Below, piece after piece: positions 1-6,000 of a stretch of DNA of 64,000 nucleotides. A program made the position numbers. The stretch comes from Escherichia coli (GTDB lineage Bacteria; Pseudomonadota; Gammaproteobacteria; Enterobacterales; Enterobacteriaceae). How positions within the stretch are numbered: position 1 is the stretch's first letter; each line of letters starts with the position of its first letter. The stretch lies in the NCBI RefSeq assembly GCF_003334305.1, contig NZ_QOWS01000019.1; one strand, written 5' to 3'.

Positions 1-3000
1 TCCGGTTATTCATCAGACGGAGACCGCTGAATGTGGACTGGCCTGCCTAGCAATGATATGCGGTCATTTTGGTAAGAATATTGACCTGATATATCTTCGC
101 CGGAAGTTTAATCTCTCTGCCCGTGGAGCAACCCTTGCAGGAATCAATGGAATAGCGGAGCAACTGGGGATGGCCACCCGGGCTCTTTCACTGGAGTTGG
201 ATGAACTTCGAGTCCTCAAAACGCCGTGTATTCTCCACTGGGATTTCAGTCACTTCGTCGTTCTGGTCAGCGTAAAGCGTAACCGTTATGTACTGCATGA
301 TCCGGCCAGGGGCATAAGATATATCAGCCGGGAGGAAATGAGCCGATATTTTACAGGCGTTGCACTTGAGGTCTGGCCCGGAAGTGAATTCCAGTCGGAA
401 ACCCTGCAGACCCGCATAAGTCTTCGTTCACTGATTAACAGTATTTACGGTATTAAAAGAACGCTGGCGAAAATTTTCTGTCTGTCAGTTGTAATTGAAG
501 CAATCAATCTGCTAATGCCGGTGGGGACACAGCTGGTTATGGATCATGCTATTCCTGCGGGGGACAGAGGGCTACTGACGCTAATTTCTGCTGCTCTTAT
601 GTTTTTTATATTACTCAAAGCTGCAACGAGTACGCTGCGCGCATGGTCTTCACTGGTTATGAGCACGCTCATCAATGTACAGTGGCAGTCGGGGCTGTTC
701 GATCATCTTCTCAGACTACCGCTGGCGTTTTTTGAACGCCGAAAATTAGGTGATATCCAGTCACGTTTTGACTCCCTTGACACATTGAGGGCCACATTTA
801 CCACCAGTGTGATCGGGTTCATAATGGACAGCATTATGGTTGTCGGTGTTTGTGTGATGATGCTGTTATACGGAGGATATCTCACCTGGATAGTTCTCTG
901 CTTTACCACAATTTACATTTTTATTCGTCTGGTGACATACGGCAATTACCGACAGATATCAGAAGAATGTCTTGTCAGGGAGGCCCGTGCCGCCTCCTAT
1001 TTTATGGAAACATTATATGGTATTGCCACGGTAAAAATCCAGGGGATGGTCGGAATTCGGGGGGCACACTGGCTTAATATGAAAATAGATGCGATAAATT
1101 CGGGTATTAAGCTAACCAGGATGGATTTGCTCTTCGGAGGAATAAATACCTTTGTTACCGCCTGTGATCAGATTGTAATTTTATGGCTGGGAGCAGGCCT
1201 TGTGATCGATAATCAGATGACAATAGGAATGTTTGTAGCGTTTAGTTCTTTTCGTGGGCAGTTTTCGGAAAGAGTTGCCTCTCTGACCAGTTTTCTTCTT
1301 CAGCTAAGAATAATGAGTCTGCACAATGAGCGCATTGCAGATATTGCATTACATGAAAAGGAGGAAAAGAAACCTGAAATTGAAATCGTTGCTGATATGG
1401 GGCCAATATCCCTGGAAACCAATGGTTTAAGCTATCGTTATGACAGTCAGTCAGCACCGATATTCAGTGCTCTGAGTTTATCTGTAGCTCCGGGGGAAAG
1501 TGTGGCTATAACTGGTGCTTCCGGTGCGGGAAAAACCACATTAATGAAAGTACTATGTGGACTATTTGAACCTGATAGCGGGAGGGTACTGATAAATGGT
1601 ATAGATATACGCCAAATTGGAATAAATAATTATCACCGGATGATAGCCTGTGTTATGCAGGATGACCGGCTATTTTCAGGCTCAATTCGTGAAAATATCT
1701 GTGGTTTTGCAGAGGAAATGGATGAAGAGTGGATGGTAGAATGTGCCAGAGCAAGTCATATTCATGATGTTATAATGAATATGCCAATGGGATATGAAAC
1801 ATTAATAGGTGAACTTGGGGAAGGTCTTTCTGGCGGTCAAAAACAGCGTATATTTATTGCACGAGCCTTATACCGGAAACCAGGAATATTATTTATGGAT
1901 GAGGCAACCAGTGCTCTTGATTCAGAGAGTGAACATTTCGTGAATGTTGCCATAAAAAACATGAATATCACCAGGGTAATTATTGCACACAGAGAAACAA
2001 CGTTGAGAACTGTTGATAGAGTTATTTCTATTTAAACCATAGAGGAATTACAAGCGTATGAGGAATATTTCTTCCTGTTATAATTCCTCGTTATGCTCAG
2101 ATATCTGTTGGAGGTGGAATGGAAGATAGACAATCCACCAAGAAGAAATATCATTCTGTGTGGATTGTCCAATAACTGTTCTTTCTTATATTAAATAATA
2201 CTATTTATAAACAAACATCACTAAGATTATTTGGACTCCAATTACACAATCTTCCCGCAGCATAGTTCCATGCTTCTGAAGGTATCCCTTCGGGTTTTTG
2301 CTTAATTGTTCCCCCTAAACCGGATGGAGACATTGCAGGATTAGGTTTGTGAGTGGATGCATAGTCATATATTGCACCTCCAGCCACACCCCCAGCAGCT
2401 GCTCCAATTCCTCCTGCAACAAATTGCCCGGATAGTGTTCCTATAGCCATCGCAATATCACGCCCTGAAGCACCACCAGAAACAGAATCTAATTCATTTA
2501 GAGTCAGAGTTCTCATATGATCTCCTTTTTATCTTATCGGATATTGAATAATAATTATCACCAACAAAGTAACATATTGCAGACATTAATGCAGAGAAGC
2601 AAAATGTATGCATGGATAAAAAGTCCTTTCCTCTAAAAACACAATCATATATAGCTAATGCAATATATATTGCGGTGGCATTTATTATAAATGCAAATAA
2701 CAACTCTAATTTTGTTCTTTTTCTATCCATTACTTTTTATCCCATTACTTTCTATCCCATTACCACACAAACACTAACGATAATGATTATCGTTAACATA
2801 GTCAAGAGTGAAGGGTAGGAGGCCCTCAACCCCCTATAAGGGGTCCGCTTGGAAAACGGATTTCCCCACGTCAAGAGAATTGATTTGAACGAGTGGCTTC
2901 GCTACAAACAGCTCCCGTTTGTGTGTGAAAAACCCCTCTCAACAGATCTCAACTCTGCACGATATCTACAGGAGATTGCTCCAAAAGGCAGTATCGTGTC

Positions 3001-6000
3001 TTTTAACTACCGATATAACCCCGTCATCGACATGATAATGCGTCTGAGAAATGAGAAGAAATTAGGTGAACTGCATTTCTTCTCAGCAGAATTTAATAAA
3101 AATTCTGCACTGACCCGCCATCACCTGACCTGGCGAGACTCCGCACAACAGAGCAAAAGCAGCGGTGCTCTGGGCGATCTATCCTGTCATCTGCTTGATT
3201 TATTTTGTTTTATAGGGGAAAGCCCGGTAGTGGTTCATGGGATCAAAACGGTAAAGGGGACACGTGGGTACAAAATCAGATGGTCAGGTTGAAGTGGATG
3301 ATAACGGCTATGTAATGGGCAGTTCAGAAAAGGGAGCTTATTTCAGAGTTCATGCCAGTAAATCGGAAACAGATCATAATTTGGGACTGCATATACAGCT
3401 TGTATTTGAAAATGGTGAAATCAGATATTCAACCCACCATGAAAATCGCCTGCTCCTGATTCTATTTAATGATACGAATACGGAAACAATTGGCTTCGAC
3501 GCTCTGAAACGCTTGCCTGATCCACCACGGGAGCTTCCATTCTGGTCTGATTCGTTTATTCATCTTCATGACGACTGGTGTGCTCTTATTAAATATGGTC
3601 ACTCGTCTCCTAAGCTGGCGGACCTGTCATCCGGCCTTCATATACAGGAAATAATTGAGGCATTCTGATATGGATACCATTCTTTTAACCGGGCTGTTTG
3701 CTGCATTTTTCACAACGTTTGCGTTCGCTCCCCAGAGCATAAAAACTATCAGGACACGCAATACCGAAGGTATCTCCGTTGTTATGTATATCATGTTCCT
3801 GACAGGTGTAATCTCATGGATAGCGTATGGCATTATGCGATCTGATTTTGCCGTACTGATCGCCAATATTGTCACACTGTTTCTGGCTGCACCAGTGCTT
3901 GTAATAACACTTATCAACCGCAGGAAAAAACACGTATGAATATTGCAATCATCGGCGCGGGTCCTGCCGGCATCATTTCTGCCCGTAATGCGATTAAAGC
4001 AGGTCACTCCGTGGTTCTGTTTGAGAAGAATACCCGAATTGGGGGGATCTGGAACCCCTGGAGTGGTGGCGCTTACCGTAATGCCTGTATGCAGAACTCT
4101 CGTTATACATTTCATTATACTGGCTTTCCCCCTGGCGATATCGATGAACGAAGTTGGATGCAAATGTCAGATCGTGTGCGCCTGTTAGGGCGCGGCTGGT
4201 AAGAGAGCCTTATAGGCGCATTTGAAAAACCTCCGGCTATGCCGGAGGATATTTATTTCATAATATTCTGAGCAGTCTTGCCGGGTTTCCTGCATAAATG
4301 CCTTTGTTCTCAATCGGTTTTACCACAACTGAACCCGCACCAATAACAGCTCCGCTGCATATATACGGAGACAGAATAATGGCTCCACTGCCAACAGTAA
4401 CCGAATCCCCCAGGGTAATGCTGATCCAGTTATCCGGTGACGGATCTGGTGCTCCTGAACGAAACAGATCGTTGGCGAACGTCACGTTATGACCAATGAA
4501 GCAGTTCTCCCCCAGTGTTACGTTCTCACAAATAAACGTGTGCGACTGTATCCGGCTTCCACTACCAATGACACAGCCTTTCTGTATCTCAACGAAGGGG
4601 CCGACAAACACGTTGTCCCTGAGTTCACATTCATAAATGTTGACCGGTTTGACAATACGGACATTGGTCCCATAAATCACATCCCGGACAGCACATTCCA
4701 TAAATTTCATACTCACACGTCCTTTAAATACAGATGACACTTGCCGGAATTATACAGCCCAGATTCACTTGCTATGTTTCAGAATAGCTTATAAGCCGCA
4801 CTTTTACCGATACTCAGCAACAAATCAGGTCTGGATCCACTTCAGCCGGAAACCGGATCTGCGCGGCGGGGAACGGGCATACAATATGATAATTAAGCAA
4901 CTTATATAAAACCATATCTGATATTATTAATAATAAATAACACACAAATCATGCGGGATATGATTTTTATTTGTCAGAACATTATCAGATGGAGCGTGCA
5001 GGATGGATGAAGAAAGGGTGTTTTCACTCAGCTATGAACAACTGACCCGGTTTGCGGAAAAACGCATCCGGGAATGCAATCTGGACAGCCAGGGCGTAAC
5101 TTATCTCTGCGAGTCAGCCAAAGCCGGAGCTGTGCTGATCTTCTGGCATGAACTGGCCATAAATGGCTATGCCTCAATGAATGCCATAAAGAGACAGGAG
5201 ATCATTGACGCCGACCATCAGCGCCTCAGAAAGCTCATCTGGCCGGAGGATGACTGGAAATGACTCAGAGCCGCCGACCGTCGCCACTGCAGCGAAGAAT
5301 GCTGATTGTGCTGGCTGCCCTTGATGAAAAACGGCCAGGACCCGTGCTGACGCGGGACATAGAACGGGTGCTGGAGCGAAGCGGGGAAGCCCCAGTCTAC
5401 GGGCCAAACCTGCGCGCCTCCTGCCGTCGTCTGGAGGATGCCGGCTGGCTGCGTACCCTGCGCGCTCCGAACCTGCAGCTGGCAGTGGAGCTGACGGACG
5501 CCGGCCGGGCCGTGGCACAGCCTCTGCTGCTGGCAGAACAGGACCGCCTCCGGGCAGAACAGCGTGCGGCAGAAGTCGTCGTACTGCCGCTGGTCCCGGC
5601 AGCAGGTCTGCCCGCAGATGGCACTTCTGCCACTGATCTGGCGGTGCAGCTGAACGGCATAACGTATCAGGCCTGCCGTGGGGATTTTGTGGTGCATCTC
5701 GACGGCAGCACCTGTCTGCAGTTATGGAATAAAGAAGGCAGGGTGGTACGCCGGGAGGGCGATCCGCTGGAAGTGGCGCAGTGGCTGCAGGCCTGTCACG
5801 ATGCAGGAATGGAGGTTCGCGTACAGATAAATGAAAGTGCCGCTCCGTAAGAACACGCCTGTGCACGGTTTACACATCATCCCATGGTGGCAGCCGGTTA
5901 ACTTTCCTGCGCCCCCAGTAGATAAACCACATTGCACATCCCCAGGAAATGCCCCATAAGCCCCCCGTCAGCACCGTGACCTGCCAGAACGGCATAAAGG

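Follow-up and report, generated by a model that had tools for sequence, protein, structure and literature searches.

What was the gene cluster whose broken pieces lie between the bacteriocin genes of an Escherichia coli virulence plasmid, and is any of the pieces still likely to be at work? The question is raised by a stretch of 64,000 nucleotides of contig NZ_QOWS01000019.1 (RefSeq assembly GCF_003334305.1), hereafter the window, whose gene content from cvaB/cvaC/cvi to the colicin Ia gene is that of a ColV/ColIa IncF virulence plasmid. A reading of the sequence alone (the sequence-only reading) had placed downstream of cvi a 5'-truncated and frameshifted Gfo/Idh/MocA oxidoreductase, a small PQ-loop/SemiSWEET-like membrane protein, an 88-amino-acid (aa) N-terminal fragment of a flavin adenine dinucleotide (FAD)-dependent monooxygenase and an apparently intact acyltransferase, and had interpreted them as the eroded edge of a sugar-modification or small-molecule tailoring cluster carried in beside the bacteriocins. 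The analysis reported here suggests that the region 2840-4710 is very probably a non-functional remnant of a horizontally mobile six-gene locus, predicted to be of the kanosamine type, that has been broken by three lesions.

The intact locus on related plasmids and in other genera

A sensitive DNA search revealed that the remnant region is a mosaic of blocks, each with a separate distribution, and that the same DNA is found inside a longer gene array on plasmid RM48e_pF34 (hereafter pF34), where the cluster occupies positions 11575-17075 of NZ_OR689867.1. The array comprises, in this order, a DegT-family (NtdA/KabA-like) aminotransferase of 412 aa (L002 5707-6945), a HAD-IIB (NtdB-like) hydrolase/phosphatase of 276 aa (6929-7759), a Gfo/Idh/MocA (NtdC-like) protein of 338 aa (7759-8775), a SemiSWEET of 89 aa and an FAD-dependent monooxygenase of the flavin-containing monooxygenase (FMO) type of 510 aa (9043-10575), with an acyltransferase gene of 150 aa lying convergent to them. 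It is followed, as in the window, by a pair of hypothetical genes, then a DUF6404 gene and the gene for colicin Ia immunity; ahead of it stand ccdAB, an integrase gene and the immunity genes for colicins M and B. Window positions 2892-4148 match pF34 (L002) 7998-9255 at 99.4% identity, with five substitutions and a single internal 2-bp indel, and positions 4252-4928 match pF34 (L002) 10603-11278 at 95.7% identity.

The whole 5.5 kb is present at 98.5-100% identity on about 60 PLSDB plasmids of E. coli, E. albertii, Salmonella and Klebsiella, and at least 80% of the cluster was found in 65 of the 5,426 complete E. coli genomes to which all genome counts given below refer. Hence, the expectation of the sequence-only reading that an alignment with related plasmids would uncover an intact ancestral cluster was borne out, and all four of its elements were recovered by open reading frame (ORF) check and family scan where it had placed them. 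Its picture of an eroded tailoring cluster beside bacteriocin genes stands in so far as the intact cluster exists; the association, however, is with the colicin Ia and colicin B/M side and not with cvi.

The aminotransferase, phosphatase and dehydrogenase genes (A-B-C) run in the same direction and order, and their reading frames overlap or abut, in pF34, Erwinia, Rodentibacter, Photorhabdus, Vibrio, Elizabethkingia and Staphylococcus. Erwinia amylovora, on its chromosome, and Photorhabdus viridis have all five co-directional genes, with the same lengths, as well as the convergent acyltransferase; Rodentibacter harbors the five genes without the acyltransferase in a region resembling a mobile element, Zooshikella the first four on a plasmid-like contig, and Vibrio hepatarius and Elizabethkingia the three ntdABC-like genes only. 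In Staphylococcus epidermidis these three genes are accompanied by a LacI-type regulator and a major facilitator superfamily (MFS) transporter. A transporter gene right after the dehydrogenase is thus a recurring feature, and its combination with an FMO and an acetyltransferase, the transporter being a SemiSWEET, is the variant of the Gammaproteobacteria. The E. amylovora orthologue of the monooxygenase (L008/L009 9289-10819) is called as two ORFs of 47 and 481 aa and the acyltransferase (L008/L009 10908-11300) has 130 aa as against 150; the cluster may likewise be decaying in that species.

Predicted chemistry of the intact operon

The comparison of the pF34 proteins with proteins of solved structure points to kanosamine-type chemistry. 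The aminotransferase matches KabA (7kz3; 1.5e-90) and NtdA (4k2b; 3.8e-88) nearly end to end (about 380-400 residues), and the nucleotide-sugar aminotransferases, with E values of 1e-50 or weaker, follow forty orders of magnitude behind. The HAD protein matches NtdB (3gyg) at 7e-47, the runner-up being a sucrose-phosphatase at 1e-6. For the Gfo protein, the closest proteins of solved structure are other members of the Gfo/Idh/MocA family that act on sugars and inositol, levoglucosan dehydrogenase among them, and its homologues at 52-56% identity carry in their sources the names ntdC or glucose-6-phosphate 3-dehydrogenase. On the grounds of the A and B proteins and of the gene order, which all agree with ntdABC/kabABC, the ancestral cluster appears to have been an operon of this type.

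It is known that the Bacillus NtdABC enzymes convert glucose-6-phosphate through 3-oxo-glucose-6-phosphate and kanosamine-6-phosphate to kanosamine, and that E. coli given ntdABC makes gram-per-litre amounts of it (PMC8788734). By analogy, the NtdC-like dehydrogenase would oxidise glucose-6-phosphate at C3, the NtdA/KabA-like pyridoxal phosphate-dependent aminotransferase would produce kanosamine-6-phosphate, and the NtdB-like HAD phosphatase would free kanosamine (3-amino-3-deoxy-glucose); the SemiSWEET uniporter encoded immediately downstream might then move the sugar, or a derivative of it, across the inner membrane, and the FMO-type monooxygenase and the convergent acetyltransferase would probably tailor or detoxify the amino group. 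These added, amine-directed tailoring enzymes suggest a new amino-sugar product.

The intact monooxygenase has strong homology to FMOs, the class B flavoprotein monooxygenases. It aligns over residues 3-490, including the C-terminal helical region, with its closest solved chain (8odw, "Polyketide synthase modules-related protein"; 9e-64), the next solved relatives being animal and bacterial FMOs. We take 8odw to be an amine-oxidising or oxygen-inserting domain of a trans-acyltransferase polyketide synthase, and searches with the accession and in the literature on lobatamide oximes gave no confirmation of this. The protein carries two GxGxxG motifs, GAGPAG (residue 7) and GGGVSG (residue 175). 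Its FMO motif FxGxxxHxxxY reads FSGTLITSRDY (residues ~150-160), with Thr for His, whereas 8odw keeps the His (FQGEVLHSGQY), a change in the motif that may mark a distinct FMO subfamily or mechanism.

Three lesions

The features of the remnant, and of the genes that surround it, are listed in the table.

Table. Positions in the window of the parts of the remnant, of its junctions and of the flanking bacteriocin genes
Feature	Position	Strand	Remarks
Orphan inverted-repeat-like 38-mer GGGGTCCGCTTGGAAAACGGATTTCCCCACGTCAAGAG	2840-2877	+	Single occurrence in the window
Left novel joint	2896/2897		Backbone sequence stops at 2896; native Gfo codon 82 begins at 2897
Gfo/Idh/MocA (NtdC-like) pseudogene, middle part	2897-3264	+	Residues 82 to ~204; 99.4% DNA identity to the intact gene
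Frameshifting 2-bp deletion in Gfo	3264/3265		Intact ACACGGGTGGG changed to ACACGTGGG
Gfo pseudogene, C-terminal part	3265-3668 (ORF 3264-3668)	+	Residues ~205-338; other frame than the middle part
SemiSWEET, full length	3670-3939	+	89 aa; NCBIfam SemiSWEET_2, 96.7 bits (cut-off 80)
Truncated FMO-type monooxygenase	3936-4202	+	88-aa ORF: 71 native codons (3936-4148), then 17 codons and stop from IS200
IS200 right-end remnant (IS200C-like)	4149-4259	+	~110 bp; 100% match downstream of IS200C tnpA
IS200-derived G+C-rich hairpin	4230-4248		Scores as a terminator on both strands; followed on the minus strand by TTTTT; 10 nt past the acyltransferase stop
Hexapeptide (left-handed beta-helix) acyltransferase, full length	4258-4710	minus	150 aa; convergent with the operon
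cvaB	53-2035		At the start of the window
cvaC	2205-2516	minus
cvi	2494-2730	minus
Colicin Ia immunity gene	6256-6591
Colicin Ia gene	6613-8493	minus

At the left joint, the aminotransferase, the HAD phosphatase and Gfo codons 1-81 of pF34 are gone, and with them the GCGGIA nucleotide-binding motif. The annotated ORF 2849-3292 opens at a TTG inside the repeat-like sequence and its 16 codons up to the joint are not Gfo; beyond it, the translation LRYKQLPF...KGT agrees with the intact 338-aa protein. In the alignments to pF34 (L002) and pPK8276 (L005) the partners share at most one base at this point, so that the joint must be regarded as illegitimate.

The 38-mer at 2840-2877, like the IS200 right end at 4149-4259, had gone unmentioned in the sequence-only reading. 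It belongs to a short block (about 2821-2896) common to other IncF plasmids, which many plasmids of E. coli and Klebsiella carry at 88-97% identity and which there runs on into the F-backbone and not into Gfo. Such a continuation into backbone is seen on pPK8276 and on Klebsiella plasmids; the window differs in that the block gives way to Gfo. A terminal inverted repeat of a Tn3-family transposon would be a 38-bp sequence that starts with GGGG and ends with ACGNTAAG, and it would be accompanied by an inverted partner copy and a transposase gene. The 38-mer, which presumably resembles a terminal repeat of the Tn3-family/Tn21 type, has no second copy in the window and no transposase gene adjacent to it. 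A transposon-mediated adjacent deletion at this repeat is unsupported: the break falls 19 bp inside the inner end of the repeat, at 2896, and not at its tip, and the repeat block continues elsewhere into backbone. We looked on pPK8276 for a progenitor that would unite cvi and the repeat block with the colicin B/M genes and the complete cluster, and from which the joint could have arisen in a single step; the cluster is absent from this plasmid.

The second lesion is the loss of 2 bp within the Gfo gene. The C-terminal part, in its different frame, translates into the intact C-terminus with one substitution, in line with the truncated and frameshifted state that had been proposed. The ORF 2849-3292 (147 aa) retains a weak partial similarity to Gfo/Idh/MocA proteins, with NCBIfam scores far below the cut-offs, and the ORF 3264-3668 (134 aa) gave no match on its own in the NCBIfam family scan. 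The identical left joint and the identical deletion were read directly in an independently sequenced avian ColV plasmid (L007), and the split-Gfo proteins WP_001323891.1 and WP_001389361.1 are annotated on that plasmid and on a second one (L001). A sequencing or assembly artefact as the cause of the frameshift is excluded by the same deletion in an independent assembly, by the same split proteins elsewhere and by the occurrence of the joint in 341 genomes.

The third lesion removed most of the monooxygenase. Identity to pF34 ends after codon 71 of this gene (4148) and resumes at about 4252-4256, just before the acyltransferase stop; in between, 1,347 bp of pF34 (L002 9256-10602), that is, codons 72-510 and a hairpin terminator, are replaced by the ~110 bp of IS200. 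The insertion sequence (IS) remnant takes the place of the 3' 86% of the monooxygenase and of the original intergenic terminator, with joint overlaps of 2 nt (AA) on its left and of TTTC on its right. The 88-aa fragment had been correctly described as N-terminal; it keeps only the first dinucleotide-binding motif, GAGPAG, of the 510-aa enzyme, and its last codons belong to IS200. A complete IS200 has both ends and tnpA, and at 4149-4259 only the right end, without the transposase gene, was found, so that this sequence is a remnant and not a mobile element. An Rfam scan of 2000-6600 gave as its sole match Ysr202, a Yersinia small RNA (sRNA), at 4225-4314 on the minus strand, with a non-significant 30.8 bits against a gathering score of 315; because it overlaps the IS200 remnant, this match probably reflects IS200/IS1541-related sequence and not an sRNA gene.

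Judged from what their sequences have lost, the Gfo and monooxygenase fragments cannot be functional. The biosynthesis predicted for the intact form was abolished in this ColV/ColIa lineage by three events. The illegitimate joining at 2896/2897 took out the promoter together with the aminotransferase and phosphatase genes and the first 81 dehydrogenase codons, and the 2-bp deletion after 3264 frameshifted the remainder of the dehydrogenase. In the third event, IS200 would have inserted just past the acyltransferase stop codon, and a later deletion, running from within the element leftward into the monooxygenase, would have spared the first 71 codons of that gene and some 110 bp of the right end of IS200. 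The first two events are the older ones, because they are common to avian ColV plasmids with a different right-hand truncation; the third marks the pS88-type sub-lineage.

The two full-length survivors

The small membrane protein, for which a SemiSWEET-like nature had been suggested, scores above the cut-off of its family, whose members have about 90 aa, three transmembrane helices and a PQ-loop, and is identical at 89 of 89 residues to EcSemiSWEET (PDB 4X5M/4X5N), the structure of which was solved as a dimer. Its gene starts 1 nt past the Gfo stop and has a GAGG ribosome-binding site 8 nt upstream. It is carried by 404 of the complete E. coli genomes, nearly always on plasmids and in copies that are all at least 99% identical, and about 84% of these genomes have less than 80% of the cluster. 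In the structural paper (Lee et al. 2015, PMC4309421), sucrose uptake by EcSemiSWEET was slow and non-saturable, and its authors concluded that sucrose is possibly not the physiological substrate; the doubt recurs in a 2018 review of SemiSWEETs, where the gene-context analysis, in the part available, covers other members of the family.

The acyltransferase is intact, as had been proposed: its 150 aa are the length found beside intact clusters, its length and position are those of pF34 and Photorhabdus, and four residues distinguish it from the pF34 copy. Its nearest solved relatives (E ~1e-10) are amino-sugar N-acetyltransferases (WxcM-like 4mzu, QdtC 3fs8, VioB 7txp and 3mqg) and LpxD-type acyltransferases. 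With 60.3 bits against a cut-off of 160.8 it falls outside the NeuD/PglB/VioB family (TIGR03570), being nonetheless a hexapeptide-repeat acyltransferase. The gene was found in 394 genomes, 91 of the places being chromosomal. On the chromosome of E. coli TUM20902 (L018 5003-5455) a lone full-length copy lies in a tRNA-Phe-associated island with an integrase gene.

The ratio of non-synonymous to synonymous substitution rates (dN/dS), calculated against the Erwinia orthologues, is 0.10 for the SemiSWEET (E. amylovora) and 0.07 for the acyltransferase; across genera, then, both evolve under purifying selection. In the remnant, the intactness of the two genes is most simply explained by their being short and lying between or beyond the deletion endpoints, and they are not demonstrably needed.

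The operon context suggests, as far as a gene neighbourhood can, a candidate substrate for EcSemiSWEET, namely kanosamine or a tailored derivative. One might go further and speculate that EcSemiSWEET is not a sucrose transporter but the dedicated uniporter of a plasmid kanosamine-type operon, exporting 3-amino-3-deoxyglucose or an N-oxidised or N-acetylated derivative of it; that colicin plasmids once carried an amino-sugar weapon or signal beside their protein bacteriocins and repeatedly lost it; and that the leftovers on ColV plasmids might still give tolerance. We consider this extended scenario possible but rather doubtful. A literature search, with many subscription-journal papers outside its reach, returned no link of kanosamine genes to E. 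coli plasmids or to SemiSWEET.

Distribution of the decay states and expression

Some part of the cluster is present in 642 genomes; the left joint on the cvi side, scored with a 211-bp spanning stretch, is present in 341 and the arrangement seen in the window (truncated monooxygenase gene, partial IS200, acyltransferase) in 114. Across window positions 2700-5000 there is 100% identity with pS88, with the plasmid carried by ATCC 11775, the type strain of E. coli, and with numerous further plasmids from E. coli and Salmonella; the remnant stretch itself is 100% identical on more than 100 plasmids besides pS88, and the RefSeq annotation of sister plasmids shows the same five ORFs. Other plasmids exhibit other states. 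The avian ColV plasmid L007 keeps about 320 monooxygenase codons, which are followed by an IS66 cut, and has no acyltransferase; another plasmid keeps the SemiSWEET, the complete monooxygenase and the acyltransferase beside an integrase fragment; further carriers retain the acyltransferase only. The cluster has been cut down independently several times.

In a quantitative reverse transcription PCR survey of pS88, the genes are listed as "putative acetyltransferase" (pS88110) and "predicted dehydrogenase" (pS88111-113); fold changes are reported for all of them, none being significant in iron-deficient conditions, serum or urine, and the neighbouring cvaABC and cia are strongly induced. Our promoter scan of 2500-5100 found no more sites than in shuffled sequence, and nothing convincing upstream of the SemiSWEET gene or of the remnant. 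Low-level read-through transcription of the remnant is the most economical reading of these data.

Weighing the alternatives

Several points weigh against the interpretation of the region as a dead remnant of a kanosamine-type operon with the history outlined above. The NtdC assignment is strong but indirect, deriving from database names and synteny, and the term "kanosamine-type" is, for the intact cluster, a prediction. The insertion of IS200 before the deletion is an order of events read from the remnant alone. The progenitor of the left joint was not found (pPK8276 has cvi and the repeat block but lacks the cluster), and a single deletion at that joint is unproven. Moreover, relaxed selection on the surviving genes is hard to assess: within E. 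coli the SemiSWEET shows no non-synonymous and one synonymous difference, too few for a test, and the acyltransferase, with four non-synonymous and six synonymous differences from the pF34 copy, is likewise too similar within the species.

Three other explanations have to be considered. The SemiSWEET (by efflux) and the acetyltransferase (by N-acetylation) might have been retained under selection as a protection against the amino sugar of competitors, in the manner of orphan colicin immunity genes, which do adjoin the cluster on several plasmids. The window has both genes at full length, the acyltransferase is found on its own in many settings, the chromosomal tRNA-Phe island among them, amino-sugar N-acetyltransferases are among its nearest solved relatives, and the IS200 hairpin could serve it as a replacement terminator. 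Nevertheless, we judge such an immunity and export module improbable. Many ColV plasmids have the left joint without the arrangement of the window (341 as against 114 genomes), and the one examined has lost the acyltransferase; the SemiSWEET gene, being in the middle of its block, would have been kept simply through its location; the promoter of the operon has been lost, nothing resembling a strong promoter is present upstream and the transcripts are unregulated; and the substitutions are too few to show purifying selection after the decay. In addition, E. coli engineered with ntdABC tolerates gram-per-litre kanosamine with neither a SemiSWEET nor the acyltransferase (PMC8788734). The idea that the ORFs are functional in their own right, as short oxidoreductases with alternative starts, might find some comfort in those RefSeq records in which, with no pseudogene flag, 2849-3292 bears the name "Gfo/Idh/MocA family oxidoreductase" and 3936-4202 the name "FAD-dependent oxidoreductase", and in the fold changes that the pS88 paper gives for them. 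It is, however, hardly credible at all: the Gfo ORF lacks the entire N-terminal nucleotide-binding segment, begins with 16 codons of unrelated backbone and has lost its C-terminal third to a different frame; the FAD fragment retains 71 of the 510 residues and then runs out into codons of IS200 origin; and several genera have conserved full-length orthologues, of 338 and 510-512 aa. The alignment to these orthologues rules out short genes with alternative starts, the finding that would have overturned the sequence-only reading for the Gfo and monooxygenase genes.

The third explanation concerns the ancestral cluster, which might have been not a producer of kanosamine but a catabolic module or one for modifying cell-surface sugars, for example one that works on nucleotide sugars for lipopolysaccharide or capsule. 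Such a role would fit the generic annotations as DegT, Gfo and hexapeptide-transferase proteins, the functional breadth of the Gfo family and the relatives of the acyltransferase, which act on nucleotide-linked amino sugars, as well as the best NCBIfam matches of the aminotransferase, PseC and ArnB, both nucleotide-sugar aminotransferases, even though all of these matches fall below the cut-offs. We regard it as unlikely, given that the same aminotransferase is far closer to KabA/NtdA (~1e-90) than to the nucleotide-sugar enzymes (1e-50 or weaker), that NtdB is the only strong solved relative of the HAD protein and a route through nucleotide sugars has no use for a sugar-phosphate phosphatase, that no nucleotidyltransferase or glycosyltransferase occurs in any of the six contexts examined, and that a facilitative sugar transporter is encoded inside the operon. 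A decayed kanosamine-type operon, therefore, is the interpretation that we favour.

Neighbouring sequences on the plasmid

Between the remnant and the colicin Ia immunity gene, within an island of 65% G+C, two overlapping ORFs of 86 and 196 aa (ydfA-/ydeA-like; 5003-5850) travel with the acyltransferase on several plasmids. Their identity to the pF34 copies is 94.5%, as against 99% in the flanking blocks, a divergence that points to recombinational mosaicism. They are followed by a DUF6404/ybaA-like ORF (5870-6127, minus strand) of 85 aa, compared with 115 aa in pF34, and about 72-90 bp of pF34 (L002 ~12304-12375) are missing within it, at about 5919. The NCBIfam scan assigned no family to any of the three ORFs, which we keep outside the cluster, since none of them adjoins the copies in Erwinia, Photorhabdus and Rodentibacter.

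On the other side, a 15-bp tandem repeat, TTTCTATCCCATTAC, occurs in three copies at 2720-2763, overlapping the first codons of cvi and the adjacent upstream sequence; pPK8276 has one extra copy, so that the copy number varies among plasmids. Orphan bacteriocin immunity genes are common around the locus on pPK8276 and pF34, with examples such as cvi without listed cvaC/cvaB, cbi without a listed colicin B gene and colicin Ia immunity without a listed colicin Ia gene, calls that have to be read with the fact in mind that PLSDB gene tables leave out pseudogenes and some genes.

Significance and comparison with known systems

Taken by itself, the remnant is a case of routine plasmid erosion with no obvious consequence for the biology of ColV plasmids; the interest lies in the intact operon behind it and in its tie to a textbook transporter. 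EcSemiSWEET is a reference structure for the transport mechanism of SWEET/PQ-loop proteins, and the operon now provides it with a genomic context, with kanosamine or a derivative as candidate substrates. The operon itself appears to be a six-gene version of the kanosamine pathway, mobile by horizontal transfer and so far uncharacterised, which occurs on plasmids of E. coli, Salmonella and Klebsiella as well as in Erwinia amylovora, Photorhabdus and Rodentibacter. Finally, the dated series of decay states, with the left joint and the IS200 joint as its steps (341 and 114 genomes, respectively), can be used to mark lineages of ColV plasmids.

Residue by residue, the product of 3670-3939 is the EcSemiSWEET of PDB 4X5M/4X5N, which its structural paper (Lee et al. 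2015, PMC4309421) treats as an isolated E. coli protein, the operon context being undiscussed in the available parts of that paper and of the 2018 review. The pF34 monooxygenase differs from its closest solved relative, 8odw, in being free-standing and not a domain of a polyketide synthase, and the window keeps just 71 residues of it. As for the manner of decay, IS200-associated deletions on IncF virulence plasmids likewise leave a terminal fragment abutting the deleted gene, with no transposase, in what is a typical mosaic erosion, and the IS66, IS3 and IS1 cuts in sister plasmids represent a comparable process; there is nothing unusual in the present case, except that the IS200 hairpin now stands at the position of the lost bidirectional terminator.

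The closest known systems are the ntdABC operon of Bacillus subtilis and the kabABC operon of Bacillus cereus UW85, with which the intact relatives share the A-B-C order, matching A and B proteins and a Gfo/Idh/MocA protein in the third place. In the Staphylococcus version a transporter gene (MFS) likewise follows the dehydrogenase, and in B. subtilis ntdC is presumably followed by glcP. The differences are, however, considerable: the intact relatives use a SemiSWEET and not an MFS transporter, have added an FMO-type monooxygenase and a convergent acetyltransferase, and have no adjacent regulator of the LacI/NtdR type; their hosts are Gammaproteobacteria, and in E. coli the locus resides on conjugative colicin plasmids. 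The window itself lacks A and B altogether, and its C is a pseudogene.

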